Assembly (NCBI GenBank): GCA_944390035.1
Contig: CALXOP010000113.1
Coordinates: forward strand, 1 to 51,216
Length of the DNA: 51,216 nucleotides
Reading direction: 5' to 3'
Source: an uncultured Alphaproteobacteria bacterium
GTDB taxonomy: Bacteria > Pseudomonadota > Alphaproteobacteria > RF32 > CAG-239
Under the pieces are notes generated by a model that worked only from the letters and a program-made list of their open reading frames with translations, searched no databases and was not told where the DNA came from. Positions 3,363-32,247 of this stretch are shown in pieces. Both the position numbers and the translations under genes were made by a program. Numbering within the stretch: the first letter of the stretch is position 1; every line of letters starts with the position of its first letter.

Positions 3363-3394
3363 AAAAAAAAAGAGGACCAAAGGTCCTCTTTTTT
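3363..3394. terminator. Bidirectional intrinsic terminator between convergent genes
   Basis: An A9 run, then the stem AGAGGACC / GGTCCTCT with loop AAA, then a T-run. It sits between the stop of 2644..3357 (+) and the stop of virB11 (-). Confidence 0.75.
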
Positions 3395-4361
3395 ATGTTA
3401 CTTCGGTTACGGCACGGAGGTTGCCGTCACGGTTGATTTGCACTACTCTTAATTTGCGGTGCATTTCTTTAATGGTTTTTTCGCGGTCAATTGTCGGATA
3501 GCTGTGCAAAATACGGTCAACAAAGGCTTCATACGCGGCCTCTGAGCTCTCAGCGTGGATGGTTGCCAGGCAGTTATCGTGTCCGGACCCCATCAGCTCC
3601 CACAAAGCGCCGGCATTGTTAGTTGAAATCTCACCGCCGATAATGGCATCAGGCGTGAAACGCACTACCAAGTCAATGATTTTTGAATAGTCAAATTCAT
3701 TGGTTTGTTCGGTACGTGACATTACAATATGGACACGATTGGGATGCGGAACAATTAGTTCTCGCGTATCTTCAATGGTGATGATTCTTTTGTGAATATC
3801 CAAAATTTTTAGAAGATTGTTCAAAAAAGTTGTTTTACCGGTAGCGGTTGCACCGGATACCAAAATATGGTCACCGCGTTTGATACTTAACAGCAATCGT
3901 TCATAAGGGTCTTCCGGGTCTTGAATATCTTTCAGAGGATTAATTTTATGCAGGCTTTCACCTTGCTTTAAGCCGTAATCTTGCAGACCAAAGGCAACAT
4001 CATCGCTATGGACACGAATTGTTAAGGCGACGCCACCGGTGAGGTCATCTTGGTCATACATTACGTTGCGCCCGCAAATGGCTGAAAAACGGTGATCTCC
4101 CGGAATTGTGGCATAAACAACCGGCGTGCCTTGTACCGGATCAAACGGTAGTTCATAGGTGTTGGCAATAATATAGAGTAAATCCGTCAGGTATTCTTTG
4201 GTTAATTTTTCGTCTTTGTACATTACCCAAGGATAGGCTCTTTTGCCCCTGAGGCGCAGCCAAACCTGTCCGGAGCGGTTAATTGCCACTTCTTCTATGT
4301 TTTCTTGATTATACCAGTATGCCAAAGGGCGTAAAACTGACTCTAAAACTTTAAAACTCAT
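3393..4361 (-). CDS. virB11: Type IV secretion ATPase VirB11
   Basis: 322 aa. Walker A SGATATGKTTFLN, IEDTRE (Asp box), GGEI and ATIHA (His box) occur in the usual VirB11/GspE-superfamily order. GGGAG Shine-Dalgarno (SD) sequence upstream. It is the last gene of the virB-like operon. Confidence 0.9.
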   Translation of the reverse strand: MSFKVLESVLRPLAYWYNQENIEEVAINRSGQVWLRLRGKRAYPWVMYKDEKLTKEYLTDLLYIIANTYELPFDPVQGTPVVYATIPGDHRFSAICGRNVMYDQDDLTGGVALTIRVHSDDVAFGLQDYGLKQGESLHKINPLKDIQDPEDPYERLLLSIKRGDHILVSGATATGKTTFLNNLLKILDIHKRIITIEDTRELIVPHPNRVHIVMSRTEQTNEFDYSKIIDLVVRFTPDAIIGGEISTNNAGALWELMGSGHDNCLATIHAESSEAAYEAFVDRILHSYPTIDREKTIKEMHRKLRVVQINRDGNLRAVTEVT

Positions 4362-4372: not shown

Positions 4373-7300
4373 CTAAAACAGTTGCGGAACACTGCTATCC
4401 GTATTTTGCGTACTGCTGCTGGTGGCCGCGCCCGGCGTGCTTGAAGTTGCAAACGACGGTGGTGGCGGCGGTGTGGCGCCGGTAGAGGTATTTGAAATCA
4501 GGGCCGGCGGATTGTTGCTCTGCTTGTTGGTGGTTGCACCTTTGGTATCATCAATCAAAGCCGGCGTGCCACCTTTGGCCTCAACATCTATGGCTTGGGA
4601 TTCATAGATAACGTTGCCGGTACCGGTCGGAGAGGCTTCGGTCTTGCCTAAGCTCCGACGGTTCTTTTCGAGCTCACGTTTGCCGGTGACAACCGGGTCA
4701 TCAATAAAGACGTCTTTCTTACCCATGCCTCCCAATTCTTTCGGATTACGATCTCTGGTTCGCATCCACAAATCTACGTTCGGATAAACAATAATACGCG
4801 TACCGGCCGGAACATAGGTCAATGGGCGAATATTGGTTTTATCCGACAGGATTTGCTCAAATACTTGATTCATTTGGTTCAAGAAATTTTGGCGTGCATC
4901 ATTGGCGGCTTGTTGTTTCGGGGTTTCATTAACACCGCTGCTCTCATTATCATCATCTGCCATAATATATGAGGTATAGCTGGTGAGTGCCGTGGTCATA
5001 ATCGGCAAAGTATATTTCTTAAACAACTGCTGGTCTAAGTAACCAAGAGCACCACCGCGACCTTGGGCGTCGCCGGTAATTCCGCTGAAGACAAATAGCG
5101 AACCGTCCGGACGAATTAGTCTTTCCCAAGTAATCTGTACTTTAGCCGACTGCGATGTGGTTTCGGTCGTTCCCGTTAAGCTGCCGAGTGTGCCCATAAT
5201 TCGGCTACCTGCCGGAATTATGATGTTTCGACCTTCTTCGGCATAGACATTACGTTCAACAAAAGCGGTTACCGGTGTTGGGTTATTGCTGTCAATGGAG
5301 CGAGCAATAACGGCCGGTATCGGTTTATCGGCAAATATCATCTCACTCAAGTCAACCCGCCATGATGAAATGGCTTTTTTGATTCCTTGTTCATCCCAGT
5401 CTTTTTGCATACCGTCAAACGTATCCGGGCTAATATTGCTGCTGATTTTTCCGACTTGCATATTGCTCCGGCGTTCTTGTTGTGCAGCATCTAAGGCCAT
5501 AGCTCTTTGCGGGTCATATCTTTCACCCGGACCAAAACCGCCACCCGGACCTAGGTTGCCTCCAGGACCCGTGCCGGTACCATAAGCGCCACCGCGACCA
5601 AAGGTGCCGGCAGGAATAAACATATCGCCGGTGGAAGGTTTCGCTGTTTCTTCAATTCCGATTAATGCGCCGTCATCATCAATGACCAGACCATCCGGCA
5701 TACGATGTCCGACGACTTTTCCTTCCTTATTAACAACGCTGCCGTCTTCCATAATATCCCCTAAATATTCACCGTCTGGCGTTAGAGCAATCCCTAAAGA
5801 GCGGCGATATTTTTCGGTCATTTTCTCTTCTTCCGGTGAGAGGCCGATTTCGGGTATTTCGCCTGGACGATTGTACCAATCTGGTCTCTCTGTTGGTGAT
5901 TTTGGTGCAATGATAGAACCTATTGTGTTTCCATTAGCGTCTAGTATGGTTCCGTTTTCACCCAATTTGCCAATTATTTTTCCCGTATTGTCAACAACAC
6001 TACCGTCAGGCAAAACTTTTCCTATAACGTTACCGTTGGCATCATAAGCCACTTTGGTGCTGGCCAATTCTCCGACCAAATTACCATTTTTATCAACAAC
6101 CTTGCCGTTTTGTACCATTCCGATAACTTTGCCGTTTTCATCGGTAACGGTTCCATCCGCGTTAACATAGCCAAGTAAATTGCCATTAACATCAAAAACT
6201 TTTTCTCTGGCTACAATTTCACCGTAATACTGCAACGGTTTGGCAACGGCGACAATTCGACCATTTGTATCAATAATACTGCCATTTTTGGTGATTGTTC
6301 CCAGGATTGTATTATTAATGTCTCTTAGCTCGCCTTTTAGATTCAGTTCGCCTAAGATGCGGTTAGAATCATCTCGGATGTAAAAGTCCCGATTGCCACG
6401 GCCTTTTACTTCATCATTTTTATCAATCAAAAATCCTCGGCTTAAACGACCCAAATTTTGATTTACAAAAGATAAGACCGTTCCGTCTTTTTGGATAACG
6501 CCGATGACTTCGTAATCATTATCATAAATATAAAAATCATAAAGTGCATAACCGATTTTGCGGTTGTCGTTAATGACATTTCCTTCAAAGTCAACCTGAC
6601 CGATGGTGTTGCCTTGCGCGTCTAAGACTTTGCCTTCTTGGGTGATGCGTCCGATATATTTGTTGGCCAGGCTGAATGCATAACGATATTTAAAGAGATG
6701 TCCGATGGGAGCTCCGGTTTTGGAATTAACATTGCCGTTTGCTTGGGCATAGCCGATAAATTGGTTCTCCGAATTAACGATTTGACCGTCTAAAACGCTT
6801 CGACCCAAAAGAACCCCGTTAAAACTCATAACCGGATAATATTCAATGGTGTGTGCCAAAGAAACACCGTCATCACTTTTGAGAAAGCCTCGTTTATCAA
6901 TACAACCCAAAACATTATTATTGTAATTCAAAACTTGACCGTTGCTTGAAACCGTACCAATGATGTTGCCGTTATAATCAATGACTGCAGTCGAATTTAC
7001 GCTGTAGCCGATATATGTTCCGTTTTCGGAGACGACTTGTCCGTTTAACAAAGGGCGCCCCATAACGGTTTCTCGATAGTTGCGGACTTCTCCGCGAGAC
7101 GTAATAACACCCAAAAACGAACATTTATCATCAATAACCGTGGCATAATCTATCGCTCCACCAATGGCAGATCCCGTGTTATCTACCAAAATTGATTCGG
7201 CTGTGATTTTGCCAAGATTAGCTCGTCCAAAGTCTGTGGCTATTCCCAAATTATTAACATAACCACCTAACCGACCGTTAAACAACAGAGCCAGTTGCGC

Positions 7301-8989
7301 TGAGCTGCCTCGCCCTAATTGCGGCATCATATTAACCGAAGCGTTATCTGTGGCCGCAATAACCGAACCATCTGGAATATATTTGCCCAAAATGCTCCCG
7401 TCTGTCTTTTGTACGAGATTGCGATTGTTAAGCAGGCCAATCGAATTGCCTTCTGAATTTACAAAGTAGCCATTATCGATATTTTTGCCGATGATTAAAT
7501 TGCGCTCATCAACATTATAGCCTGATTGGGTTAATTTTCCTAAGGCCCGGACATTGTTGTTGGTTAATTGTCCATTGGGCATAATTTGCGCAATTGGGGT
7601 GCCCGTAATATTGTAAATTCCGGATAAAGGCAAGCCGCGTCCCGAAGGTTTGCCATCGGCTGAGAAGAGGTAACCAAACGGAGACATAAATTTTTTCTCT
7701 TCACCGTCCATTACGGCTCCACTAATGCCAACCAGTCCCAAAACTTGATTGTTGGAATTAATGGCTAACAAGTTCCGCATGGTGGCGCCAATGGCTCGGC
7801 CGGTATTTTCATAAGCCATGTTATCCATAATATAGCCGGCAGGCGTGCCCTCCATGGTGATAATTGAGCCATTTTTCAGGGCATGGGCTCTTAGCGTACC
7901 TCGATAATCAAAAACCGGACCGGCATTGATAATGCGACCAATCAAAGTTCCGTCTGCCGACAATACAGCCCCGCGCGGACCGACTTGTCCGACTTCATCT
8001 TTACCTTTGCGAATTTTGCCTTGCGGAACAACGCGTCCTAAATATTTGCCGTTTAAGTCTGTGGCCGTTGCTGAAAAATCAACCACAGAACCAATAATTT
8101 CTCCTTGCAGATTGGCAATTGTTTCGTCGGCTTGAACATGTCCTATAATCATGTTTTTGTCAATGACTTCACCATTGTATGTAACAAAACCGAGGTATTT
8201 GCCGGAATTATGTACAGCATAGCCTGAACGAACAATACTGCCGATAATTTGATTGTCGTTATTATAAACAAAACCGTTGGCCTTTACATAGCCAATCGTT
8301 ATGGCATCAAAATTGGTGACACTGCCGCCGGGGGCAACACTTCCGATAAACTCGCCACTCAGAGATACAACCATTTTAGAGGAAATGAGACGTCCGTCCA
8401 AAATATATTCTTGGCCAACCTTACGATAGGCATAACCATCAGGAGAAATAAAGCCGATTGCCTGTCCTTGCAAGTTGGTATATAAACCATCACCGGTTAG
8501 ACGTCCTACCGTTTTGCCATCGTCAGAATAAACCAATCCCGGAAAAAGAACCGAACCAACTACATTAAAGAAATCATCCAAAACCAATCCGTTAGGCAGT
8601 ACTTTGGCGATGATTTTACCGGAAGGTAAGCGAACGGAGCCATCGTTATTTACTTTGCCCAAAGGTTTGTTATCATTGCCGATGGCAATTCCTTGAGGGA
8701 CGACACCACCGATAATTTCCCCGTCAAAATTTAGAATTAAGCTGTCGGCGGTTACATTGCCGATTAGTTGATTGTCAAAGCTCACAACCTTACCGTCGGG
8801 TATGACTTTTCCGATTAAGTCACCGTTAAAGTCAACCGCCGTGATTTCCTGAGCTTGGGCATTAACGCAAAAAAGCAACATTCCAAACAGAATATTGACA
8901 AATTTCAGCGCTTTGACGCAACATTTTTTGTTTGTGCTTGCCCCTATCAACTCAGTTCCTCCGGTTCTTTGCAACTTCCTGCAATGCAT
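4373..8989 (-). CDS. virB10: Giant VirB10/TrbI-family protein (~1538 aa): N-terminal TM, ~1100-aa repeat region, Gly/Pro linker, VirB10 C-terminal domain, 125-aa Pro/Ser/Thr tail
   Basis: The C-terminal block (nt ~4760-5375) reads ISSWRVDLSEMIFADKPIPAV...ERNVYAEEGRNIIIPAGSRIMG...ITWERLIRPDGS...GALGYLDQQLFKKY...RPLTYVPAGTRIIVYPNVDLW, the TrbI/VirB10 barrel pattern. The N-terminal hydrophobic segment is FVNILFGMLLFCV. The listed start 8998 is TTG; the first ATG is at 8989. Confidence 0.85.
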   Translation of the reverse strand: MHCRKLQRTGGTELIGASTNKKCCVKALKFVNILFGMLLFCVNAQAQEITAVDFNGDLIGKVIPDGKVVSFDNQLIGNVTADSLILNFDGEIIGGVVPQGIAIGNDNKPLGKVNNDGSVRLPSGKIIAKVLPNGLVLDDFFNVVGSVLFPGLVYSDDGKTVGRLTGDGLYTNLQGQAIGFISPDGYAYRKVGQEYILDGRLISSKMVVSLSGEFIGSVAPGGSVTNFDAITIGYVKANGFVYNNDNQIIGSIVRSGYAVHNSGKYLGFVTYNGEVIDKNMIIGHVQADETIANLQGEIIGSVVDFSATATDLNGKYLGRVVPQGKIRKGKDEVGQVGPRGAVLSADGTLIGRIINAGPVFDYRGTLRAHALKNGSIITMEGTPAGYIMDNMAYENTGRAIGATMRNLLAINSNNQVLGLVGISGAVMDGEEKKFMSPFGYLFSADGKPSGRGLPLSGIYNITGTPIAQIMPNGQLTNNNVRALGKLTQSGYNVDERNLIIGKNIDNGYFVNSEGNSIGLLNNRNLVQKTDGSILGKYIPDGSVIAATDNASVNMMPQLGRGSSAQLALLFNGRLGGYVNNLGIATDFGRANLGKITAESILVDNTGSAIGGAIDYATVIDDKCSFLGVITSRGEVRNYRETVMGRPLLNGQVVSENGTYIGYSVNSTAVIDYNGNIIGTVSSNGQVLNYNNNVLGCIDKRGFLKSDDGVSLAHTIEYYPVMSFNGVLLGRSVLDGQIVNSENQFIGYAQANGNVNSKTGAPIGHLFKYRYAFSLANKYIGRITQEGKVLDAQGNTIGQVDFEGNVINDNRKIGYALYDFYIYDNDYEVIGVIQKDGTVLSFVNQNLGRLSRGFLIDKNDEVKGRGNRDFYIRDDSNRILGELNLKGELRDINNTILGTITKNGSIIDTNGRIVAVAKPLQYYGEIVAREKVFDVNGNLLGYVNADGTVTDENGKVIGMVQNGKVVDKNGNLVGELASTKVAYDANGNVIGKVLPDGSVVDNTGKIIGKLGENGTILDANGNTIGSIIAPKSPTERPDWYNRPGEIPEIGLSPEEEKMTEKYRRSLGIALTPDGEYLGDIMEDGSVVNKEGKVVGHRMPDGLVIDDDGALIGIEETAKPSTGDMFIPAGTFGRGGAYGTGTGPGGNLGPGGGFGPGERYDPQRAMALDAAQQERRSNMQVGKISSNISPDTFDGMQKDWDEQGIKKAISSWRVDLSEMIFADKPIPAVIARSIDSNNPTPVTAFVERNVYAEEGRNIIIPAGSRIMGTLGSLTGTTETTSQSAKVQITWERLIRPDGSLFVFSGITGDAQGRGGALGYLDQQLFKKYTLPIMTTALTSYTSYIMADDDNESSGVNETPKQQAANDARQNFLNQMNQVFEQILSDKTNIRPLTYVPAGTRIIVYPNVDLWMRTRDRNPKELGGMGKKDVFIDDPVVTGKRELEKNRRSLGKTEASPTGTGNVIYESQAIDVEAKGGTPALIDDTKGATTNKQSNNPPALISNTSTGATPPPPPSFATSSTPGAATSSSTQNTDSSVPQLF
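5620..8850 (-). repeat. Coding repeat region of virB10 (degenerate ~17-20-aa G-x-x-I-G-x-V-x-x-D/N-G-x-V units)
   Basis: The translation shows continuous recurrence of [DN]G.[VI].....G..[IL]G.V throughout. The units are most regular just upstream of the Gly/Pro linker (..VFDVNGNLLGYVNADGTVTDENGKVIGMV..YDANGNVIGKVLPDGSVVDNTGKIIGKL..). Confidence 0.8.
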
Positions 8990-11900
8990 AACCTGCAACC
9001 TTCTTATCTAAATTTACGTAAGAACCGTTATTTTTAAGATAACCGACATTTTTGCCTTCACTGTCTTCAACAACGCCTTCCGCATTGAGGCGGCCGACAT
9101 AGTTGCCGTCATTTCCTAAAATTGTGGCTCCTATCTTGTATATTTTTCCAATAATACTATCATTATTGTCAATGGCCAAATCACCCGAAATGGCTCGACC
9201 AATCAGACTACCTTCTTTGTTTCTGATTTTACCATCAAAATTAACATAGCCTACAACTTTATCTGAGTTATCAATAACAATATCACCGTGGACAACTTCT
9301 CCGATTAATTTTCCAGCAGCACTAATGACATTGCCGTCAGATAAGACACGACCAATGACTATATTTTCTCTGTCGATGACTTGTCCGTTCGGTAAAACTG
9401 CCCCTATGGTGTTACCGCCAAAATCAATTACCGTGCCGCGACGCAGCAGACTAAGATTTTTGTCAGTAGAACCGCCGGGAAGAACTGCCGTTATCACTTC
9501 ATTTTTCAAATCTATTACGTCACCGACCGAGTTGACGCGACCTTTATAGTTGCCCCAAATATCAACCACAATATTTTCAGGAATAACTTCGCCGATGAGC
9601 TTTCCTTTCAAATCTATCACTTTTCCGTCAGAAGTTGTAGTTCCGACCCTCGTGCCTTCCATACTGATAACCGTGCCGTCGGTTGTGGCATAGCCCAAAA
9701 ATGACCCGTCATAGCCAATGGCACTTCCTCTGGAAATAACACCGCCGCGATAAACGCCTTTGCTGTCAATAAAGTTTCCTTTGGCATCTATTCGGCCTAA
9801 ATTTTCACCAAAACGAGTGATAACTTGTCCGTCATGCGAGACTTGTCCAATCGTCTTTCCTTCAAAATCTGCCACAAAACCTTTTTTGACGGTGTTGCCG
9901 ATGAGAGAATTATAAAAGTTTAGGCCATCGCCGTGGAGCTTTCCGATTACGTTGCCTTTAGAATCGTAAACCTCACCACTTGGGAAAAGGCGGCCCTTGA
10001 AATTTCCTTCGGGTGAGATAATTGTTGATTTTTCATCCATCAAAACGCCCAAGATTTCGTTTTGGTCGTTGGCAACCAAATCATTGGCATAAAGTTTGGC
10101 ATCAGGTTGGCCACTAATGGCGACACGTCCGTTCGGGGCTACCAGATTTAGGAAATTACCGTGCAAATCATAGGCATTTGTTTTTTCCAGAACTCGACCG
10201 ATATAGGCCCCGTCTTTGTTAAAGACATCGCCATAGAGGCCAACGCAGCCAACTGGTTGTTGAGAAAGTGCTATGACCAAGCCATCGGCCGAAACTTGTC
10301 CCAAATATTCTCCATCATAAGACAGAGCAACGCCGTTACGAACCACACTGCCGATAACTTCACCTTTTTCGCTCAGAACCGTACCGTCGGGGTTAACACA
10401 GCCCACATAGACCCCTTCAGAAGAGCGAACAATTCCGTCTGTGCCGACATCTCCGATATAAGTGCAATTATTGTCAAACACTTTGCCGGTGCGGATGACT
10501 TCGCCGACATAGTTGTTTTCTGCATCAACAATTACACCATCAGGCATGGGTTTGAGTTTTGTTTCCGTATTGCCTTTTTTTATCTTGCCGTCCGAATCCA
10601 AATAACCGATATTTTTGCAACCATAGCCCACAACCAGTCCGCCTCGGATTAATTTGGCAACAACCTCCGAACCGGACGGATCGCGTACCAAACCGTTTGA
10701 CAGTACACGACCTACCGTTTTGTTGTTTTGAACAACCGTACCGTCATTGTTTAATTTTCCCAAAACCGTTCCTTTGGGAGTTATCGGTATCATACGAGTT
10801 TGAACCAAAGCACCCAAAGTTTTGTCTTGCGAGCTTACGATATTGCCATTGGCATCGACATAACCGATTTCATTGCCTTTGAGGTCAAATACTTTGCCGT
10901 TGGCATCAACATAGCCAACCACCTTACCATCTTTATCCAAAACCAGATTGACCATCTCGCCGGCTTTGCCGATAACATTACCTTCCAAGTCAACTAAAGT
11001 GCCATCATCTAGCATTTTGCCTATGATGTTGCCATTAAAATCAACAACATTACCGTTTTCATCAATGTAGCCTATCAAATTGCCGTCTTTATCATAAGCC
11101 AAACGCCTTTGCGCGCCGATATTCATATCGGCAACTTTTCCTATGACGTTACCGTTATTGTCCACAACCGTGCCGTCAGGCAAGACGCGCCCGATAATAT
11201 TACCGTTGGCGTCACGGACATTGCCGTCTTCATCAACATAGCCGATGACATTGCCATCCTTATCATAAACCAGACGTCTTCCCGGAACATTGGCAACTTG
11301 TCCAATCACATTGCCGTTGGCATCCACAATCGTCCCATCGGGCAAAACCTTACCAATGACATTGCCATTAAAGTCAACCACATTTCCGTTCTCATCAACG
11401 TAGCCGATAACATTGCCATTTTTATCATATGCTAACCGTCTTTGCGGGATAGTCGTTGACTTGCCGATAACATTGCCGTTTTCATCCATAACATTGCCGG
11501 CAGCATCAACTTTGCCGATAACATTGCCGTTGGAATCGATAACATTGCCGTTAGAATCTACAAAACCTATAACTTTACCGTTTTTGTCATGCGCTAATCT
11601 TACAGAACCGCCGGCGTTTCCCAAAACATTTTTGCCGACAACCTTGCCGTTTTCATCTACATAGCCGACAACATTGCCGTTTTTATCTACCACCGAGCCA
11701 TCGGGCATCACAACACCCAAAACATTGCCGTTTTCATCAACGGCAACGCGGCCTTGCTTGCTGACACGGCCTATGACGTTACCATTGGCATCAACCGCTT
11801 CTCCGTTGGCATTTAATCTACCGGTCACATTACCGTTTTTATCGACGACCGTGCCGTCGGGCATAACCCGGCCGATGATGTTGCCATTTTTATCATACAC

Positions 11901-12875
11901 AAAACCGGCATCAACCGCTTTACCGATAACATTACCGTTCAAATCAACGACCGTGCCGTCGGGCAACATACGACCGATAATATTGCCGTCTTTGTCCACC
12001 ACGGTACCGTCAGGATTAACATAGCCGATAACGTTGCCGTTAGCATCATAAACCAAGCGGCGGTTTTCGCCAACGCCTATGACATTGCCGTTTTCATCAA
12101 CGACCATGCCGGCGGAATTCACCCGTCCGATGACATTGCCGTTAGAATCGCGAACATAGCCGTCTTCATCAATGGTGCCGATTACCTCGCCATTGGGGCC
12201 GATTGCATTGCGCGTGCGCAAACCTTTGGCTGTGTTATCTGCATTAGCACCGATGTTATCTGTCGGTACTTGCTCACAAAAGTTGCAATCTTCTTTGCGG
12301 ATGGCATTACCTTCAACCGGAACTTTTTCAGACTTGGCGTTGGCGGTTGTTAAGTTTGATTCATGCCAGGTTATAATAAAGTTGTTTTGAACATTTCCGG
12401 GGACAACCGGGGTCCAACTCATGGTAATATCACAAGTCTCATGGCCGCGGAGTTCTTTATCCGTACAATCGTCCTTAAACGTAAATCCATCAAAAGGCGG
12501 CTCAGCTAACTGGACAGAGACAATTTTGATGGCAGCTTTGGCATTGGTCCCTATGGTTAACACATTTTTGGCATCCGTTCCTAAGACAACCTGCCCCATT
12601 TGAACCGGATTAGGCGTTGTGGTAATCGGTGGCTCTGCCTCGTCTATCATACCGAATTCGATATTATTGCTCTGCGTATTGTCAGATGTAATGTTTAAGG
12701 CATCATCATTGGTGGTAAAGACGGGCTCGGTATATTCATTTTCAACCGGACCACTCTGCATTAACAACATTACGCCCAAAACAAAGATGACAAACGAGGT
12801 AATACCAACCACAAAAATAATGCGGTTGGTTTTCTTTATATAACTCTCCGAATGTGTTAATACCTCTTTGCTCAT
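8952..12875 (-). CDS. Giant bitopic repeat protein (~1307 aa) paralogous to the VirB10 repeat region; no VirB10 C-terminal domain
   Basis: ATG at 12875 overlaps the virB9 TGA (ATGA). TM helix IIFVVGITSFVIFVLGVMLLM. A unique ~180-aa region follows with a possible Ig-like segment (..CDITMSWTPVVPGNVQNNFIITW). After that come more than 20 N-G-N-[VI]-I-G units (by-eye count) and then degenerate units to the C-terminus. Confidence 0.75.
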   Translation of the reverse strand: MSKEVLTHSESYIKKTNRIIFVVGITSFVIFVLGVMLLMQSGPVENEYTEPVFTTNDDALNITSDNTQSNNIEFGMIDEAEPPITTTPNPVQMGQVVLGTDAKNVLTIGTNAKAAIKIVSVQLAEPPFDGFTFKDDCTDKELRGHETCDITMSWTPVVPGNVQNNFIITWHESNLTTANAKSEKVPVEGNAIRKEDCNFCEQVPTDNIGANADNTAKGLRTRNAIGPNGEVIGTIDEDGYVRDSNGNVIGRVNSAGMVVDENGNVIGVGENRRLVYDANGNVIGYVNPDGTVVDKDGNIIGRMLPDGTVVDLNGNVIGKAVDAGFVYDKNGNIIGRVMPDGTVVDKNGNVTGRLNANGEAVDANGNVIGRVSKQGRVAVDENGNVLGVVMPDGSVVDKNGNVVGYVDENGKVVGKNVLGNAGGSVRLAHDKNGKVIGFVDSNGNVIDSNGNVIGKVDAAGNVMDENGNVIGKSTTIPQRRLAYDKNGNVIGYVDENGNVVDFNGNVIGKVLPDGTIVDANGNVIGQVANVPGRRLVYDKDGNVIGYVDEDGNVRDANGNIIGRVLPDGTVVDNNGNVIGKVADMNIGAQRRLAYDKDGNLIGYIDENGNVVDFNGNIIGKMLDDGTLVDLEGNVIGKAGEMVNLVLDKDGKVVGYVDANGKVFDLKGNEIGYVDANGNIVSSQDKTLGALVQTRMIPITPKGTVLGKLNNDGTVVQNNKTVGRVLSNGLVRDPSGSEVVAKLIRGGLVVGYGCKNIGYLDSDGKIKKGNTETKLKPMPDGVIVDAENNYVGEVIRTGKVFDNNCTYIGDVGTDGIVRSSEGVYVGCVNPDGTVLSEKGEVIGSVVRNGVALSYDGEYLGQVSADGLVIALSQQPVGCVGLYGDVFNKDGAYIGRVLEKTNAYDLHGNFLNLVAPNGRVAISGQPDAKLYANDLVANDQNEILGVLMDEKSTIISPEGNFKGRLFPSGEVYDSKGNVIGKLHGDGLNFYNSLIGNTVKKGFVADFEGKTIGQVSHDGQVITRFGENLGRIDAKGNFIDSKGVYRGGVISRGSAIGYDGSFLGYATTDGTVISMEGTRVGTTTSDGKVIDLKGKLIGEVIPENIVVDIWGNYKGRVNSVGDVIDLKNEVITAVLPGGSTDKNLSLLRRGTVIDFGGNTIGAVLPNGQVIDRENIVIGRVLSDGNVISAAGKLIGEVVHGDIVIDNSDKVVGYVNFDGKIRNKEGSLIGRAISGDLAIDNNDSIIGKIYKIGATILGNDGNYVGRLNAEGVVEDSEGKNVGYLKNNGSYVNLDKKVAGYALQEVAKNRRN
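8990..12190 (-). repeat. Coding repeat region (NGNVIG-type units; includes three ~54-57-aa super-repeats at ~10950-11445)
   Basis: At the DNA level, AACATTGCCGTT / GACATTGCCGTT recurs densely on the + strand between about 10960 and 12170. The super-repeats start with RRL(A/V)YDK(N/D)GN at about 11440, 11278 and 11107. Confidence 0.85.
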
Positions 12876-14512
12876 TGCGTCCTTACTACGCTGCAAAATA
12901 CCCCGTTACGACCTAAGCGACTGCAGACATTGTCGCCGGATTCCAAACTCTTGACTGGCCCAACACGTAAGTGGAACAACTCTTTGCCTTGTCCGTCAGC
13001 CGGGGCATCAACCGAGAAAAACGGCTCATAACGACTTAAGACATCAGGATACTTTTTAGAGAGCTCGCTCCACAAATTCTCCAAATTCGAGACATTGGCG
13101 TCCGTTCCTAATTCGATAGAGATATTGGAACTATCGGCACCGACAAAACCCGAACCAAAGCCATAACCACCTTTTGAACCGGCCTGTCCGCCTACATTGC
13201 CGGCATATTGATTATTATTTTTAATATGCTGCATTTTCGAGTAATCGTAGCCATCGTTAGGCGGTTGGAAACCTATGTTGACCCCATTGCCATTGCCTGA
13301 GTTAGCACCGCTATTGCCGTAGCGCGGTACAACAATTTCGCTTTGTCCGACTTGAATGTCATATTGTCCCGGCATACCGTTGGCTGAAGAATTAAATTCA
13401 CTGTCTCTGCCGGTACCGCCCGTCGGACGCATGGTTCCACCCGGAATTGGTTGCGGAACATCCCATGCAGAATCTTCAAAATCCGTTGCATAAGTGGCAT
13501 TTTCCAATCCGGCATCATCAGAGCGACGCATCTTGAGGCAAACTATTCTCTTGCCGTTGCGCAATACCATATCACCAATTCCTTCAACAACAATCAAGCG
13601 ATTGTTCGGTCCTTTGGTTCTAAATCCGACCGGAACTTCTATTCTTTCAACAATCAAGGTGACAATCGGGCGTTGGGTCATATTGAGCGCCTTTTCACCA
13701 AAATCAATATAAGTGAAAATATCATCCCGCCATACTCTTTCCGGCGCAATCACAACATCATCCGGATTTGGAACATAGACTTCAATATCAAAACGGAATT
13801 TGCTCGGGTCGACTGGAATTTCTTTTATCCAATCACTTCTTTGAAAGCGTTTGGTAAAAAGAGAATCTGCCGAATGGGCATTGTTTGCCTTGTAGGATGA
13901 GGCATTTACACCCGAACCGCCGCCAACACTTCCGCCAGCAATGCCGGCTCCTCTTGAACCTGCCGGACCGTCAATCACATCAATATCAATAATTGAATTG
14001 GTCAAGCGCTCTGTGTTGACACCTTCACTTTTGACATAAAATACATATTTATTCCCTGAACGGCCAAAGATAATAATATTGGTATCGACCCCGACATTTG
14101 CTCCCTTACGCGGATAGAGCAAAATTGTATTCGGACCGGAAATTTGGCCATCAAACGTGGCATTGTCACCAATATACATGTCCTCAATTAGCTCCCACTC
14201 CGGAAAATTGAGCAAAGTTATCATACCTTCACGTAGGCGTATCGGCAAGATTAAATCCGGCGACCAATAATATTTTGAATATGCCGGCTTGCTTTGTCCT
14301 TCGCCCAGATTTTGGAGCGGGTCCAGCCAAGCGGCTTGTGTCATTCCAAGAGAGTTAAAACCGGCATAACCCAGATTCATCGGCATATATTGTCCCTGAC
14401 TTTGGTCGGCATTTTGATCCAAACTTCCCATCGTGGCTTGCGAAAAAGCATTACGGCTGACCATCAGCGTAATTGCTCCGATTAATAAAATTTTGCCAAC
14501 TTTCAAAATCAT
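12872..14512 (-). CDS. virB9: VirB9/CagX-family protein with C-terminal SPOR-like domain (546 aa)
   Basis: Signal peptide. N-terminal domain YYWSPDLILPIRLREGMITLLNFPEWELIEDMYIGD...ILLYPRKGANVGVDTNIIIFGRSGNKYVFYV. C-terminal domain DDIFTYIDFGEKAL...RLIVVEGIGDMVLRNGKRIVCLK. A Gly/Asn-rich linker follows, then ISIELGTDANVSNLENLWSEL...FHLRVGPVKSLESGDNVCSRLGRNGVFCSVV (SPOR-like). Confidence 0.85.
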   Translation of the reverse strand: MILKVGKILLIGAITLMVSRNAFSQATMGSLDQNADQSQGQYMPMNLGYAGFNSLGMTQAAWLDPLQNLGEGQSKPAYSKYYWSPDLILPIRLREGMITLLNFPEWELIEDMYIGDNATFDGQISGPNTILLYPRKGANVGVDTNIIIFGRSGNKYVFYVKSEGVNTERLTNSIIDIDVIDGPAGSRGAGIAGGSVGGGSGVNASSYKANNAHSADSLFTKRFQRSDWIKEIPVDPSKFRFDIEVYVPNPDDVVIAPERVWRDDIFTYIDFGEKALNMTQRPIVTLIVERIEVPVGFRTKGPNNRLIVVEGIGDMVLRNGKRIVCLKMRRSDDAGLENATYATDFEDSAWDVPQPIPGGTMRPTGGTGRDSEFNSSANGMPGQYDIQVGQSEIVVPRYGNSGANSGNGNGVNIGFQPPNDGYDYSKMQHIKNNNQYAGNVGGQAGSKGGYGFGSGFVGADSSNISIELGTDANVSNLENLWSELSKKYPDVLSRYEPFFSVDAPADGQGKELFHLRVGPVKSLESGDNVCSRLGRNGVFCSVVRTQ

Positions 14513-14532: not shown

Positions 14533-15264
14533 CTATTGAACTCTGTTTAGTGTCAATGAATATCTATCAACCGTAAACCCAACCGGATTGTTTAAGCGTT
14601 CGCCGTATTTAACGCTTTTTTGAACATAGCCAACCCGCAAAGAGGCTGTCCAGTAGTTGATTTCCGGCTTGGTCGAATCCGGATACATATCTTGTGTTTC
14701 ATACTCAACTTGCCACAAGCCTCTGCCCAACTCATTAACCGTCAGAATACGAACATTTCGCTGTAAGCTCTTGGTGCGGATAATATCAAGCGCCCTTTTA
14801 GCGGTTTTGTTCAAGAATTCTTGATATACCGCAGGAGAGGACATTTCTTGTATCGGGCCACCCGGCATCCAGCGTGCTTCCATTTCGGGGATATCTCTGT
14901 CAAACGAACTTCTTTGCAGAACATATTCTCTGACAAACACTTCGGTAATTGCCTTTTCATCTGCCAAATTTCCTCTAACCGGAACAATATTGTAAACTTG
15001 TTCCCCTTTGGCCTGAAATGTCAGCAAAAAAGGCTCTATGCGAAACAGCGGCATAACTTGAATAATTGCCAGAAACAAAACAACATTGCAGCATAGGCTA
15101 ATTGCCGTGATGACGGCAAAGGCACGTGCGGTCCAGAGATACCTCTTTTCACCGACATTGGCGACAAAGACATCTTCCGTCGTGCGTGATTTGACAGTTT
15201 GTTGAGGCTGTGCCTGCCGCCCTATAAGGCGTTGCTGTGTATTATTTTCGAGGCGATTATCCAT
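14533..15264 (-). CDS. virB8: VirB8-family protein
   Basis: 243 aa. The N-terminal TM helix is AFAVITAISLCCNVVLFLAII. The periplasmic domain has ..VFVREYVLQRSSFD.. and the C-terminal signature NYWTASLRVGY...NPVGFTVDRY. Confidence 0.85.
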   Translation of the reverse strand: MDNRLENNTQQRLIGRQAQPQQTVKSRTTEDVFVANVGEKRYLWTARAFAVITAISLCCNVVLFLAIIQVMPLFRIEPFLLTFQAKGEQVYNIVPVRGNLADEKAITEVFVREYVLQRSSFDRDIPEMEARWMPGGPIQEMSSPAVYQEFLNKTAKRALDIIRTKSLQRNVRILTVNELGRGLWQVEYETQDMYPDSTKPEINYWTASLRVGYVQKSVKYGERLNNPVGFTVDRYSLTLNRVQ

Positions 15265-15272
15265 TGGTTTTC

Positions 15273-15461
15273 CTAAATTGTTTCAACAAACCAATCGGGA
15301 AGTGTTTTCGGCAACTCGACCTGCATGCAAGCGCAAGGTGATAACTTCAACTCATCAACACCTTTACCGACGCCGACCGGCTCTGCCTCGTAATATGACC
15401 CAAATATGCCGCAAGATGACAGCAGCATTAGAACAAAAAGCATAATTATCTTTTTTGACAT
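15273..15461 (-). CDS. Small lipoprotein, VirB7-like by size and position
   Basis: 62 aa. Signal peptide with lipobox (LLSSC). It lies between two virB8 paralogs, directly upstream of virB8-virB9. I see no sequence signature beyond this. Confidence 0.5.
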   Translation of the reverse strand: MSKKIIMLFVLMLLSSCGIFGSYYEAEPVGVGKGVDELKLSPCACMQVELPKTLPDWFVETI

Positions 15462-15511
15462 GTCTTATTTCCTTGTCTATATCGTTCGAGTACTCTTATA
15501 GATATTACGAA

Positions 15512-15539
15512 ATTATACTCTTTTTCATTAAAAGTCTAA
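15512..15539 (-). promoter_or_regulatory. Candidate sigma70 promoter (internal, upstream of virB7-like gene)
   Basis: The minus strand reads TTAGAC - 16 nt - TATAAT, in the 113-nt gap between virB8 paralog 2 and the lipoprotein gene. Confidence 0.35.
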
Positions 15540-15574
15540 TATCGTATTGCGGAAATCCCCAACTTATCAACAAG

Positions 15575-16333
15575 CTATAATATTTCTACTTCGGCTTGAG
15601 AATAGCGCGTTACCGTAAAACCTATCGGATTTATCAATCTTAAGCCCGTAAATTCTCGTCCGGGGATGAAAAAGGCCGTAACTGAAGCAGTCCAATATTT
15701 TACCGTCATAATGCGAGCACGCGTCTTTTTATCAACCGCGTATTTGGAAAGCTCATAAGTTTTAAAATCGACTTTCCAGACCGGACTGCGCTCACCGCCT
15801 TGCTTACCGATAGAGATAATTTCAACCTCTCTGACCACGCCGTCATGGCGCATTTTTTCCCAAATGCTGTCGCGGTATTGCGAAAACTCGTTATACACCC
15901 TCGGAGCTGATAAAAAGTTCATCATACCGCCGTCATACCAGCGCACCTGCATTTCCTTTTCATCATCAATTATGGTATTGCGCAGAATAACAAATTGCGC
16001 CACAAACATTTCCATTAATTTGTTTTTGGAGGCCATTCGATTGGTGATGGCTTCGGCTCTGACAATGCCATCCGACGTATCTTGATTAATGATTAAAAAC
16101 GGCTCGACCGAAACCTGCGGGGCCAGCCTGAACAAAGCTAACGAAAAGCTCATAAAAACCAAGAGTGAAAGTATGGCAAAAAAGATAAACAAGCGAGACA
16201 GCCACATATAATATTTGAGCTTAAAGCCTTCTTTTTCTTGCTCTGTTTCGCTGATGAACTCGTGCGTTTGACCGTTGGAATCCGTCAATGACAGAACCTT
16301 TGCTCCTTCCAACTGCGGGTTTATGTTGTTCAT
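15575..16333 (-). CDS. virB8: VirB8-family protein, second paralog
   Basis: 252 aa. TM helix LFIFFAILSLLVFMSFSLALF. C-terminal KYWTASVTAFF...INPIGFTVTRY parallels the first paralog. Confidence 0.8.
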   Translation of the reverse strand: MNNINPQLEGAKVLSLTDSNGQTHEFISETEQEKEGFKLKYYMWLSRLFIFFAILSLLVFMSFSLALFRLAPQVSVEPFLIINQDTSDGIVRAEAITNRMASKNKLMEMFVAQFVILRNTIIDDEKEMQVRWYDGGMMNFLSAPRVYNEFSQYRDSIWEKMRHDGVVREVEIISIGKQGGERSPVWKVDFKTYELSKYAVDKKTRARIMTVKYWTASVTAFFIPGREFTGLRLINPIGFTVTRYSQAEVEIL

Positions 16334-16348: not shown

Positions 16349-19300
16349 TTAGTATGCTGCACAGAAAGGTATCGGGAACGAGTTTAGTTGTTTTTCAAAT
16401 TCTTCATCGGCTTTTTTCTTGTATTCCGACGTTACTTGATGGTTTACTTCTTCCGTTTTTATTCTCTCGTCTAATTCCGAACCGGAATCCGTGGTATCGC
16501 TGAGTGAGATATACGCCTCTTTATCTTTGCGCAAAGCAGTAAATATATTCTTAATCTTATCTACTCTTTCTTGAACAACTTCGTTATCCATTACATTTAC
16601 GCTATCCAGCTGTTCCGTGGCTTCATTAATGAGGCTGTTTTTATAGCGATTCAGCGTTTCTTTGGTTAGGTCATAGTCTTCTTGTTTGGCTAAATCATAA
16701 TCCGCACTCGGAACAAAGCCGATTTCTTCAAACTTTTCAAACAGCTCGGCTTTGGCTTCATCTACACTTAATTTCATTTCTTCAAGTGCTTGACGATAGC
16801 TGATTTCTTGCTCAACAAAGGTTAAAAAATTACCGATTTGGTTATGGTCAAGCATAGCTTTTTCATAGACTATATCTTGCATATTTTCCGTATAAGATGA
16901 GCCTTCTTGCTTTTCTTCGGCCATCTTTTCCAAGCGTGCAAATACCGTTTCAGGCGCATCGTTGTAGAACAAGCCGGAATCTGTGGCTTTGAGCAAAGTG
17001 CCAAGTTCACTGTTTGAGCCAGTATTTCCAACCTCTTGAGCAGTTAGTACTTTTGCTGATGCCGTGACCTCTTCTGCTTTGTCTTTGATGGTGACATATC
17101 TTTTCAGCTGTGCCAAGAGCCCTGATGCCCCTTCCAGACTTATTTCTTGGCATTGCGGCAGTTGGCGCCAATTTTCCCACTCGTCAGAAACTTTTGTGCT
17201 ATAAACGCGGAAAGTGCCGTCCGTGTTGGTTAGATCAATGATGTAATTATCCAAAATGCAAGGATAACGTCCGCCGCGCATAAAGTTTGCCGCCTCGTTG
17301 CCTTCGGAAAGCAAGGTTTTTAAATCTATATCTTTATCAACAAAGGCTTTGTTCTTTAATATCAATTTCCAAATTTCGGGGAATTTTCCACCGCTGTTGA
17401 GCAAGCCTTCTTTGCTGACGCCGCCATTGCTGGTTTTGGTGACATTATCGTGGTCAACATCGTCAAAATGAACAACTTCTCTCAGCGGGGGCAAGTATTC
17501 CTGAAGTGAATTCTTAGGCGCCATAAAGTCACGCGCTTTGCCGTAAGAGCCGACAAAATAGTCATCATCGGCTTGCATACAAGCATCATCCACGCAGGCT
17601 TGTTCTATCAGCATTTTTTGGAACATTGAGGTCAGCGGTTTGATAATTGATGCTGTTTTGGCATAGGCCCCGACGGCAGATGAAAAATTCTGCAGACCTT
17701 CAACCGGCAAGTCCTTTAATTTGGTCATTAGGTCTTGGTGCAATTTGACAATCTCATCACCATAGGCACCGATATAGACATCTTCTCCCAAATTCATAAT
17801 TGCGTTTTGAGTATCATCAACCAGTTGAACAGCATAACTCTTGGTATCAGAAGTCAGACCGCTGGCTGTTTGCAAAATTCGTAGCAGGCTAAACGGCGGA
17901 ATTATTCCGTCTGCATCGGCAACCGGAAGTCCGATTTTGTTTTGATAATAAGCAACCAAATCGAGCGTTTCTTTGGCTTTGCGCTTTTCTTCTATATATT
18001 TTTTGGCTTCTTCCAATTTTTGATTATAAGCCTGTTCAATTTGCTGAACTTGAGAAATATAATTCTGTTCTTCGGCAGAAATTTGTTCTTCTACTTGCTC
18101 TAATTGTTTCTTTAAATTAGCCACCTCTTGGTCTTTGCTATCAACCTGAGTTTTTAGACTTGCGGCTAATTCGGTATTTTGTTCAACTTCGGCTTGGTAT
18201 TGATTAATTTCTTCTTTGGCAAGCGACATACCTTCCGTATCTTCCAAATTCAGAACTTCGCTTTCTTTTTCGGTTGAGTCGGTGTAATCTGCCGTTTGTG
18301 CCTCTTGGGTTTCTTCATCTACCTTATCAGTTGTTTCCAACGTGGTATATTCCATCGTAGCTTCTGCCTTAGAATCTAGCTCGGCATCTAATTTGGCCTT
18401 TTCTTGATTATAGTCAAAAGTGTTATACTGTGCGCCAAAATACAGTGTACGGCTGAGTGCATATTTTGAGCCGTTTCCGGGTGCAAAATTACCATTTTCG
18501 CTAAACGGGCGACGGCGGAACAAGGTCTTTTTCTCATTAGCGGCCGGGGCTTCAATCGATGTATCATCTTCCGGATAGAGGCTGACCGAACCGTCCGGAT
18601 TACTGGTAATGTTGTTAGGTTGTAAATTTTGTTTTTCCAAAACTTGTTGCTGTTTTGCCTGATAGTTCAGCTTATTCATCTTATCTTTATATTCGGAGAT
18701 GGCTTCACCGGTGTCAAACAGCATCCTTTGTTCGGTATTTTCTTGGTATTCGGTTGAGTGTACTTCTTTGGTGGTCTCCGGTGTGACCTCATAGGTTTCA
18801 TCAGCATATTCAACACTACTTTGCTTTGTAATGTTATCTTCAATGTCTCCTTGGCGGTCTTCTTGGTCTTGGAGGATTTTTCCTTGAGTATCTACACCGG
18901 CTTGAGCCTTTAATTTATTTTGTTGTGCGGTGTTGAGTTGTTCGGAGTAATCCGCCAGTAAACCGGAGGCTCTGTCTAGCTTGTCTTGCAGGCTTTTTTT
19001 GCGGCTTTCCAGACTTTGGAGGCGTGATTGTTTGCTGTTTAGGGCCTTTTGTAAGAGTTCGTCTTTATTCTTTTCAAGGCTTTCTAAGACAGAGGCCGGA
19101 TCGGAGGCGGCATCTTCTTGTGCCAGACGAGCCGACAAGCTATCCAGTCCGGCGCGATTGTTGGCTCTTTCATCGGCATCTTCGGTCAAGATATCATTAA
19201 GCGGATAGGCTATTTCAACAATAATCGACGTCACATCATATTGTTGCAGATAGTCTTTTATGTTGCCGTATTTACCGCCTATATATTGATTATAAAAACT

Positions 19301-20962: not shown

Positions 20963-20975
20963 TCTTTTTCTCCTT

Positions 20976-22352: not shown

Positions 22353-23134
22353 GAGTCCTCCTCGGCATAAGTAAATTGTCTTGCCTGTTGAGTTGCATTA
22401 TATTCAAAAAGCATCGTGTTCATCAACATTATTTTGCGAAATCGTTTAGCCATCTCCATTGATTTGGCTTTGGTGCTTTGAATAATATCGCGGGTATTTT
22501 CCTTGTCTGTTTCTTCGGCTTCTTCTTTGGCCAGGTTTGCTCTGTCACTAAAAGCGACGGCATATAAGTTGGCAAAATTAGCACGTTGAATTTCGCTCAT
22601 TTTTTCTTCTTGTGCATTATAAATTTCGACCAAATCCGTTGTTTCTGAACTATCTGCATTATCAGCAGTTGATTGATTGCCCGAAGATGATGAGGTGCTT
22701 GTGTTGGATTTTGGGCGTTGCATTAAATAGTTTTTTTGAACTGCTGAGCTGAGTGCTTTGGCATCATTTAAATCTACCTTGGTGGCAAAACCCGGCATTG
22801 AGCTACCCAAAGTCTGGAGTGAACCTTCAGGATCATTGGCAAAATTTTGCACCGCATTTACCTTATCTGTCACGGCACTTATGTTATTGCTAATATCATT
22901 TTTAACCGAATTTACGGTATTGACAGCACTTTTGACCGTGCCCATAGCACCTTCGGCTGCAGAACGTATATCTTGCTGAATTTCGTTCAAATCTTGTTGA
23001 ATAGAGCGCGCTTCTTCCAAACCGGTTTTTATCGGACCTAAAACAGTTCCTTGTATGGCTTCAATATCCGCATAAGATATTTGCGGCCAAAATAGGCTAA
23101 GCGCCAGCAGAAAATATATTAACTGCTTTTTCAT
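22349..23134 (-). CDS. Secreted helical protein (261 aa), VirB5/TrbJ-like by size, signal peptide and position
   Basis: Signal peptide ending ISYA. It then reads DIEAIQGTVLGPIKTGLEEARSIQQDLNEIQQDI and is helical throughout. Its ATG overlaps the upstream TGA (23131-23134). The family assignment is an inference. Confidence 0.6.
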   Translation of the reverse strand: MKKQLIYFLLALSLFWPQISYADIEAIQGTVLGPIKTGLEEARSIQQDLNEIQQDIRSAAEGAMGTVKSAVNTVNSVKNDISNNISAVTDKVNAVQNFANDPEGSLQTLGSSMPGFATKVDLNDAKALSSAVQKNYLMQRPKSNTSTSSSSGNQSTADNADSSETTDLVEIYNAQEEKMSEIQRANFANLYAVAFSDRANLAKEEAEETDKENTRDIIQSTKAKSMEMAKRFRKIMLMNTMLFEYNATQQARQFTYAEEDS

Positions 23135-32208: not shown

Positions 32209-32247
32209 AATACCCTCCCCTTTGTTTGCTATGCAGTTACCTGCTGA

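Follow-up and report, generated by a model that had tools for sequence, protein, structure and literature searches.

Canonical VirB10 is one chain of about 380-450 amino acids (aa), made up of a cytoplasmic tail, a transmembrane helix, a Pro-rich linker in the periplasm and, at the C-terminus, a barrel that bears antenna helices. CagY of the Helicobacter pylori Cag type IV secretion system (T4SS) is a VirB10 homolog that internal repeats have enlarged to about 1,900 aa; it remains a single chain, its repeats are helical and Cys-containing, and one repeat block is variable in copy number. DotG/IcmE of the Legionella Dot/Icm system carries pentapeptide repeats in a single, transmembrane-anchored chain. 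A single VirB10 chain with an N-terminal tail and an inner-membrane transmembrane helix bridges both membranes (review PMC12857230), and a 2025 review names VirB10 as the sole subunit bridging the two membrane complexes. Here we describe a locus in a 51,216-nucleotide (nt) stretch of DNA, hereafter the window (contig CALXOP010000113.1 of assembly GCA_944390035.1, positions 1 to 51,216), from an uncultured gut alphaproteobacterium of the RF32 lineage, where comparison of the encoded proteins indicates that a giant VirB10 is split over two adjacent genes, which we call virB10-N and virB10-C, and that its linker region is replaced by arrays of short beta-hairpins.

The RHS repeats of shell-forming proteins have a period of about 20-22 aa. 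The beta-flower fold, to which the hairpins of the present locus appear to belong, is known from AlphaFold models in which short hairpin petals form 4-, 5- or 6-fold shallow barrels. Its hairpins carry [DNEQ]xxG at the tip and its function is not known; the domains described so far are small, about 80-115 aa long (PF21784/PF21785/PF21786, clan CL0395; Durairaj et al. 2023, PMC10584680).

The window pair shares with canonical VirB10/TrbI proteins (A. tumefaciens VirB10, pKM101 TraF, R388 TrwE, Xanthomonas VirB10 and ComB10) the barrel, its two-helix antenna and the gene slot between virB9 and virB11. Unlike these proteins, it is encoded by two genes and not as one chain; virB10-C is without the N-terminal tail and transmembrane helix, both of which are carried by virB10-N so that the pair has them, and the barrel-bearing half has a predicted signal peptide in place of the anchor. 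Hairpins totalling about 2,100 aa and a Gly-rich motif take the place of the Pro-rich linker, whereas a distant relative, P0078, keeps Pro-rich segments. With CagY the window protein has in common the C-domain fold, the repeat expansion and one block variable in copy number, but its repeats are 17-aa beta-hairpins, the gene is split and a signal peptide is predicted. No similarity to the CagY repeats was found; sequence matches to CagY in the PDB were confined to the C-domain, and no Cag repeat was matched in Pfam or NCBIfam. DotG is likewise a VirB10 homolog that has been expanded and is rich in repeats towards its N-terminus, and its C-domain forms the outer-membrane dome; no pentapeptide repeat family was matched by virB10-C in Pfam or NCBIfam. 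These results agree with the original prediction, made from the DNA letters of the window, that the repeat is of neither the pentapeptide nor the Cag type. That prediction had also set the protein in parallel with CagY and DotG, and the parallel holds for a repeat-expanded VirB10 homolog but goes no further than the expansion: repeat type, split and signal peptide differ, and virB10-C is not a complete VirB10, its N-terminal module lying on the upstream gene.

Compared with the described beta-flowers, which are small, about 61 and about 63 hairpins run continuously in the two T4SS proteins of the window. The resemblance to the RHS/YD-repeat shells of T6SS (type VI secretion system) Rhs cores, TcB/TcC and teneurins comprises matches to YD and RHS hidden Markov models (HMMs) and local Foldseek matches, but the period is 17 aa, global superposition fails and no Rhs toxin family was matched. 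In the searchable literature we found nothing relevant on beta-flower repeats linked to VirB10, on DUF3659, on giant or YD/RHS-type VirB10s or on the T4SS of these gut Alphaproteobacteria (RF32), and no paper there was found to describe a split giant VirB10 with beta-flower arrays.

A giant VirB10 divided over two genes

The minus-strand frame 4373..8998 is free of stops and has 1541 codons counted from TTG 8998, from which all aa numbers of virB10-C are counted below. The roughly 1540-aa VirB10 reading frame that had been predicted is thus real, and no frameshift separates the repeat arm from the TrbI domain. Its features, in the order in which they are encoded, are as follows.

8957..8962, minus strand: Shine-Dalgarno-like GGAGGA within the last virB10-N codons, 7 nt before TTG 8950, as read from the sequence
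4373..8950, minus strand: virB10-C, the outer-membrane half of the putative split VirB10, 1525 aa from TTG 8950
8852..8950, minus strand: predicted Sec signal peptide MIGASTNKKCCVKALKFVNILFGMLLFCVNAQA, with predicted cleavage after A49 and before Q50
6224..8851, minus strand: hairpin core of near-constant length, QEITAVDFNG to PLQYY, aa 50-925, about 51 units of 17 aa
5900..6223, minus strand: copy-number-variable cassette of regular 17-aa hairpins of the DANGNVIGKVLPDGSVV type, 6 units in the window
5792..5899, minus strand: non-repeat spacer SPTERPDWYNRPGEIPEIGLSPEEEKMTEKYRRSLG, aa 1034-1069, a short helix with low confidence (pLDDT) in the structure model
5648..5791, minus strand: three strongly conserved hairpins, IALTPDGEYLGDIMEDG...DDDGALIGIEE, aa 1070-1117, nearly invariant in alignments A1 and A2, pLDDT about 90
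5510..5620, minus strand: conserved Gly-rich motif FIPAGTFGRGGAYGTGTGPGGNLGPGGGFGPGERYDP, aa 1127-1163, near-invariant columns in alignments A1 and A2
4760..5371, minus strand: VirB10/TrbI C-terminal beta-barrel domain, aa 1210-1413
4832-5029, minus strand: two antenna helices in the barrel domain, aa 1324-1346 and 1360-1389, from the AlphaFold2 (AF2) model
4376..4759, minus strand: C-terminal Pro/Ser/Thr tail, aa 1414-1541, 128 aa
4454-4471, minus strand: PPPPPS in the tail, read from the translation
4376-4393, minus strand: terminal SVPQLF of the tail, read from the translation

The identity of the C-domain is supported by both sequence and structure comparison. Pfam TrbI (PF03743) matched aa 1221-1411 with 116.5 bits against a cut-off of 35 (E 1.7e-33), and H. 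pylori ComB10 (2bhv), the closest solved protein by sequence, aligned to aa 1210-1413 (E 2.4e-19), corresponding to nt 4760-5371, where a TrbI-type domain had been placed at about 4760-5375. The NCBIfam T4SS_VirB10 and ComB10 models also matched virB10-C, with scores under their equivalog cut-offs. Foldseek on the C-domain model returned TrwE (7o3j), Xanthomonas VirB10 (6gyb), CagY (6x6s), TraF (3jqo), DotG (7muq and 9ngw) and ComB10, all with probability 1.0, and the target-normalised template modelling score (TM) against the solved VirB10 C-domains was 0.56-0.69 (0.6-0.69 for the TrwE, Xanthomonas VirB10, CagY, TraF and DotG entries).

The gene upstream carries the elements that virB10-C is without.

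8952..12875, minus strand: virB10-N, the inner-membrane half, 1307 aa from ATG 12875 (start MSKE, set by alignment A3), with a weak ASH/choice-of-anchor-D match
N-terminal, minus strand: cytoplasmic tail of virB10-N, MSKEVLTHSESYIKKTNR, 18 residues
12759-12821, minus strand: transmembrane helix, 21 residues
12360-12626, minus strand: immunoglobulin (Ig)-like domain
from 12209, minus strand: about 63 hairpins of 17 aa, of the same type as in virB10-C
8955-9044, minus strand: C-terminal 30 aa, invariant

The N-terminal 225 aa of virB10-N are collinear with the N-termini of two TrbI proteins of canonical length, P0078 (579 aa) and P0083 (620 aa), which consist of a tail, a transmembrane helix, a Pro-rich segment, an Ig-like domain, a second Pro-rich segment and the TrbI domain. 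The alignment by hhalign had a probability of 95% and an E value of 3.8e-8 for P0078 and a probability of 75% and an E value of 2.5e-5 for P0083, while BLASTP gave 0.003 and 2e-5, respectively. A word-indexed search with the N-terminal 235 aa returned close, mostly truncated orthologs only and no TrbI proteins, and the link of virB10-N to VirB10 is drawn from hhalign and from a profile of the N-terminal module that was searched exhaustively against 1.84 billion representative proteins. This profile search identified 8 proteins of 1498-2363 aa that match the entire N-terminal module at residues 1-207, and every one of them also has beta-flower repeats and a C-terminal TrbI domain, with a single transmembrane segment and no internal hydrophobic segment. 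The gene of one of these unsplit proteins, P0318 (2201 aa, locus L019), is the only one between virB9 and virB11, on a part of a 71-kb scaffold that has no gaps. These alignments establish the domain content of the two window genes and the homology of both halves to unsplit proteins.

In the same profile search the Ig-like domain of the N-half (C144/C155, W161-P163 and QNN170-172 in the numbering of the reading frame) was seen to recur often in other giant proteins, with lengths of up to 7259 aa, and it is a widespread repeat domain, not one specific to VirB10.

We read the window genes as two halves of a giant VirB10 because the N-terminal module aligns with TrbI proteins, the unsplit forms join both parts and the layout recurs among relatives. 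It could instead be argued that virB10-C is in itself a complete, repeat-expanded VirB10 in a single chain like CagY and DotG, which are precedents for this arrangement and share the C-domain fold by Foldseek, that it is anchored by its N-terminal segment, and that the repeat protein encoded upstream is an accessory without relation to it. One intact reading frame does hold both a hydrophobic segment at the N-terminus and a full C-domain, which would fit such a protein. We nevertheless regard this explanation as very improbable, given that the canonical tail, transmembrane helix and Ig-like module sit on the upstream gene, that the 8 unsplit proteins join this N-terminal module to TrbI, with the unsplit gene of L019 found between virB9 and virB11, and that the hydrophobic segment is short and followed by a conserved AxA-type site, as detailed below. 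Altogether, virB10-C is probably the outer-membrane half of a two-gene giant VirB10 in a chromosomal T4SS of uncultured gut Alphaproteobacteria, the two halves of which would together rebuild the bridge.

The break-end motifs QEITA.. and ..AKNRRN and the Gly-rich motif were not found in the unsplit proteins. The break ends are the most constrained parts of the arms: the 30 C-terminal aa of the N-half do not vary, and the first about 200 mature aa of the C-half are the best conserved of its arm, with conservation of 0.85 and 0.80 compared with about 0.55 in the middle of the arm.

Two further loci carry related arrangements. In L018 (2185-2200), a distant relative 46% identical over the aligned C-domain, the upstream repeat reading frame and virB10 lie in the same frame with one TGA between them (GGG TGA GCC GGG ATG), and the downstream part is without a signal peptide. 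An error in the sequence of an unsplit gene, a nonsense mutation or read-through could account for this. In L017 (2609-7939) a transmembrane-anchored N-half homolog runs for 1777 aa without a stop into a 100-N gap (7824-7923), after which a TrbI-bearing frame follows, and this could be another unsplit giant VirB10.

Start site and predicted signal peptide of virB10-C

Three in-frame starts were considered for virB10-C. Apart from TTG 8950, these are ATG 8989 (1538 aa), which was the start in the original prediction and is codon 4 of the frame from TTG 8998, and TTG 8998 itself (1541 aa). The likeliest true start is TTG 8950, giving 1525 aa, since a GGAGG(A) motif lies 7 nt before it, it is 1 nt past the TGA of the upstream gene (8954-8952), and the gene call of ortholog P0093 begins at the matching position.

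The hydrophobic segment at the N-terminus had been taken for a transmembrane segment. The segment exists, but its features are those of a signal peptide. Among the orthologs, the first about 30 residues of the C-half vary freely while a basic n-region is kept, the h-region has a median of 13 residues, and an invariant QEITA[IV]DFNG follows directly after the predicted cleavage site. Of the 122 orthologs, 111 have A and 11 have S at position -1, and position -3 is A in 92, V in 20, L in 5, S in 3, G in 1 and T in 1, so that the -3/-1 rule is satisfied in 122/122. The segment thus looks like a cleavable signal peptide and not a membrane anchor, because a 13-residue h-region, an AxA-type site and an invariant mature start occur together in 122/122 orthologs. 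The semi-tryptic peptide predicted for the mature N-terminus of the C-half is QEITAVDFNGDLIGK.

Conservation of the split and integrity of the assembly

A genome scan identified 14 loci, all from metagenome-assembled genomes (MAGs) of uncultured gut or faecal Alphaproteobacteria, including Candidatus Scatocola. The split layout virB8-virB8-virB9-N-half-C-half-virB11 was found in 14/14 related loci, which come from independent MAG assemblies, and the stop, Shine-Dalgarno motif, start and signal peptide at the junction of the halves recur across them, which demonstrates the split as well as its conservation. At the protein level, the arm query returned 417 protein clusters at E <= 1e-5, and the full-length clusters among the matches listed, of 1409-1550 aa, cover 91-100% of the arm with 48-86% identity and carry both Bflower and TrbI. 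Orthologs are annotated as "TrbI/VirB10 family protein" or "hypothetical protein".

The possibility that the locus is an artefact, with mis-assembled repeats or one gene broken by a sequencing error, was weighed against these data. Scaffold gaps of 100 N do occur within regular repeats in L001, L002 and L017, and many database entries are truncated to 550-760 aa. However, intact C-half frames of 1448-2332 aa are present in 12 of the 14 loci, each an independent assembly; together with the 1409-1550 aa of the full-length clusters among the matches listed, they show relatives equally long, a comparison of lengths that the original prediction had proposed. Repeats within the reading frame are at most about 72% identical at the DNA level, which makes repeat collapse in assembly unlikely, and the junction elements recur in all loci. 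Because of the 14 independent assemblies and the hundreds of arm-matching clusters, we do not consider the giant split VirB10 an assembly artefact, an explanation to which we give almost no credence.

The 550-760-aa Bflower and TrbI entries were considered as truly short relatives, and this was dropped because they begin inside repeats and the frame of L001/L002 is broken by a 100-N gap; the gaps of L001 and L002 fall in the variable cassette and break a much longer frame.

The hairpin repeat arm

The arm of virB10-C had been predicted to consist of 17-20-aa units. A giant all-beta repeat array is indeed present, with about 61 units in total, but its period is 17 aa. The motif G..[ILVMAT]G occurs 30 times in the arm compared with 8.2 +/- 2.7 times in shuffled sequences, at spacings of 17/34/51 aa, and the conserved Gly positions have an autocorrelation of 0.51 for a lag of 17. 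A 17-column profile tiled 45 units in virB10-C compared with 0.9 +/- 1.0 in shuffles, leaving 13 gaps of 15-17 aa and 3 more of 20-26 aa between tiled units; we interpret these gaps as degenerate units, some of which may contain a short insertion, hence the estimate of roughly 61 units.

Pfam, to which the original prediction had looked for a family name, assigned the repeat to the beta-flowers. Bflower_2 (PF21785) scored 204.2 bits on virB10-C against a gathering threshold of 38 (E 4e-61, whole protein), Bflower (PF21784) 86.5 bits against 25, and DUF3659 (PF12396) 69.6 bits against 24.8. The YD-repeat model TIGR01643 matched with 33.4 bits against a cut-off of 15.8, and the RHS_repeat HMM was marginal at 23.2 bits against 22. 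On virB10-N, Bflower_2 matched with E 2.8e-87, RHS_repeat with 82.6 bits and TIGR01643 with 74.1 bits. The beta-flower tip motif [DNEQ]xxG is present, the unit being of the type xVxD-x-N-G-x-[IV]-I-G-x-V-x-P-D-G, and by these matches the arm repeat belongs to the beta-flower family (PF21785, PF21784 and PF12396/DUF3659) and is YD-like. A super-period of 4, 5 or 6 hairpins, which would be a sign of discrete flowers, was seen neither in the conservation autocorrelation nor in the unit tiling.

To describe how the arm varies in length, spans between conserved motifs were measured in 105 orthologs. EITA and PLQYY lie 842-889 aa apart (median 870, about 51 hairpins), whereas the span from PLQYY to IALTPDG is 65-970 aa (149 aa in the window), and the part C-terminal of IALTPDG is 442-489 aa. 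From these alignments, the arm is a module of near-constant size followed by a single length-variable cassette of regular hairpins. The longest ortholog has 2332 aa (L016, 4262-11260), with a variable cassette of 970 aa alone, roughly 57 regular hairpins.

A cassette that ranges from 65 to 970 aa between relatives is also what could be expected if the arm were exposed at the surface of the cell or on a pilus and served in adhesion or antigenic variation, as has been proposed for the middle repeat region of CagY. The cagY gene undergoes in-frame repeat rearrangement, which the variable cassette recalls, and the free N-terminus of the split C-half is untethered. Against surface display, the array of the unsplit homologs would be tethered at both ends to periplasm-facing elements, the 870-aa core is near-constant in length and 48-86% identical across clusters, and the DNA repeats of the reading frame are too diverged for ready recombination, so that we consider a surface location improbable.

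The mature arm (aa 50-1141, 1092 residues) was modelled by AF2 with 55 aligned sequences, namely the window arm and 54 orthologs. The model had a mean predicted local distance difference test (pLDDT) of 87.4 and a predicted TM score (pTM) of 0.78, with the blockwise pLDDT of the core mostly at 87-97, and it was all-beta, composed entirely of short strands with lengths alternating between 5 and 3 residues per 17-aa unit. Since the pTM is high over 1092 residues, the model suggests that the arm may be a single rigid body, not beads on a string.

When this model was searched with Foldseek, the top PDB matches of the arm were Rhs cores, teneurin and TcB/TcC (8qjd_B with E 3e-31, 6ske_A and 7pq5). 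An RHS-like cocoon fold, prompted by the YD/RHS HMMs and the E value of 3e-31, was dropped given TM values of 0.07-0.09 and an rmsd of about 30 A against the Rhs, TcB/TcC and teneurin shells, together with the 17-aa period. The low E value beside these low TM values means that the hairpins resemble Rhs shells locally but not in global shape. The Pfam and NCBIfam scans of the window protein also turned up neither an Rhs-associated toxin nor any further domain family, which likewise speaks against such a cocoon.

Gly-rich motif and C-terminal tail

Between the arm and the C-domain, the original prediction had placed a linker standing in for the usual Pro-rich region. The Gly-rich stretch at aa 1127-1163 is present and is disordered in the monomer model (pLDDT < 50), yet it is nearly invariant among the aligned split-clade proteins, which are 48-86% identical over the arm, and for this reason it is not simply a floppy replacement linker.

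The predicted Pro/Ser/Thr tail is found as well, with 128 aa where 125 had been counted, and ends in SVPQLF. One helix is predicted in it (aa 1435-1449), and its V[VI]YE motif is conserved. In the split giant VirB10s and in the unsplit ones (P0318-P0410), the last two residues are a hydrophobic one and Phe (..PQLF, ..GGLF, ..ARMF and also ..IF), with P0387 as the exception. Outer-membrane proteins carry a C-terminal aromatic signal, which the ..LF-type ends of the giant VirB10s recall.

Proposed assembly of the two halves

The comparisons can be accommodated by a model in which the linker region of VirB10 would have been replaced by a giant array of 17-residue beta-flower/DUF3659 hairpins, about 2,100 residues over both halves, and the gene would then have been cut inside this array. 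Both hairpin arrays would be periplasmic. In the unsplit form the array would be tethered to the inner membrane at one end and to the outer-membrane barrel at the other, and in the split form the halves may re-associate non-covalently via their invariant break ends, thereby rebuilding the bridge from inner to outer membrane. Together the arrays would act as a scaffold, large and rigid, and the variable cassette could tune its length.

Several points weigh against this model. We infer the binding of the halves to each other, and both structure predictions are of monomers. The 2,100 hairpin residues per subunit pair are far beyond what is needed to span the periplasm, and a role as bridge or ruler is therefore not self-evident. 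That the gene underwent fission rather than fusion follows from parsimony only. Cleavage of the signal peptide is predicted from sequence rules, and the arm model is known by pLDDT, pTM and DSSP strings, which do not distinguish closed barrels, a solenoid or a shell. In addition, the unsplit homologs are without the Gly-rich and break-end motifs, and further changes may have arisen in the split clade.

As the interaction between the halves is one that we infer, the two proteins might also work independently, the C-half as a periplasmic or cell-wall scaffold tethered to the outer membrane and the N-half as an inner-membrane protein, with no VirB10 bridge at all. A cell-wall role would suit the peptidoglycan-binding SPOR domain in the virB9 of the operon and the choline-binding hairpin-repeat proteins that Foldseek weakly picked at ranks 31-37. 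On the other hand, the two genes are 1 nt apart with the Shine-Dalgarno motif within the upstream gene, virB10-N and virB10-C are always adjacent, and no part of either arm is more constrained than its break end. Independent action therefore seems unlikely, although it is the alternative to which we give the most weight, and we retain the bridge rebuilt from two halves as the preferred reading.

Operon and neighbourhood

The T4SS operon of the window contains two virB2 genes, virB4, two virB8 genes, virB9, virB10-N, virB10-C and virB11. The two genes that flank the split VirB10 are given below.

12872..14512, minus strand: virB9, with a CagX match (1.2e-11) and a C-terminal SPOR match (5.8e-06; peptidoglycan-binding)
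3393..4361, minus strand: virB11 ATPase (T2SSE, 3e-21), directly downstream of virB10-C and syntenic in all related loci

The stop of virB9 overlaps the start of virB10-N as ATGA. Two VirB8 paralogs and two VirB2/TrbC pilin paralogs are encoded in the operon (14533-16333 and 31759-32586, minus strand), and the duplicated virB8 is also found in related loci, including L019. Between and beside virB4 and virB8, at 16349-25386 and 28348-31734 on the minus strand, lie five open reading frames (ORFs) of 1537, 458, 261, 751 and 1128 aa, all of which have a hydrophobic, signal-like N-terminal start and no family match above curated cut-offs; no polytopic VirB6 was clearly recognised among these five. 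A type IVb pilus cluster lies divergently beside the T4SS locus (34935-44473, plus strand) and comprises TcpQ, a secretin, PilO, a T2SSE ATPase, a T2SSF platform protein, a bundlin-like pilin and a second T2SSE-type ATPase. Three genes in a row at 45739-48627 (plus strand) encode a protein with a VWA domain, a PP2C phosphatase and a protein kinase of the Ser/Thr type. Neither a VirD4 coupling protein nor a relaxase was found among the window ORFs scanned with Pfam, and the window has no tRNA genes.

Implications for VirB10 and the beta-flower fold

The hosts of this system are common, uncultured gut Alphaproteobacteria whose secretion machinery is uncharacterised in the searchable literature, and the databases hold many truncated VirB10 entries of 550-760 aa from repeat-induced scaffold gaps, which hide the true architecture. 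In its broadest form the finding would be that, in a widespread clade of these bacteria, VirB10 naturally consists of two polypeptides joined only by the non-covalent docking of giant beta-flower arrays, which would build a scaffold of a new kind and of megadalton size in the periplasm, composed of a near-constant module of 51 hairpins and a cassette of tunable length; we put this forward tentatively, as a proposal that may well not hold in full. If the outer-membrane core were 14-fold, as it is in the solved complexes among the fold matches, with 14 chains per entry, the arrays would add several megadaltons. If true, this would be the first functional context for the beta-flower fold, which has been known from AlphaFold models without an assigned function and is now placed in a machine, a compartment and an operon slot.

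A conserved natural split of VirB10 is noteworthy because VirB10 has been named the sole subunit that bridges both membrane complexes and, as one chain, would couple the ATPases at the inner membrane to the gate in the outer membrane. The occurrence of the conserved split beside unsplit sister forms offers a natural experiment on whether covalent continuity is needed for the coupling of the inner and outer membranes.

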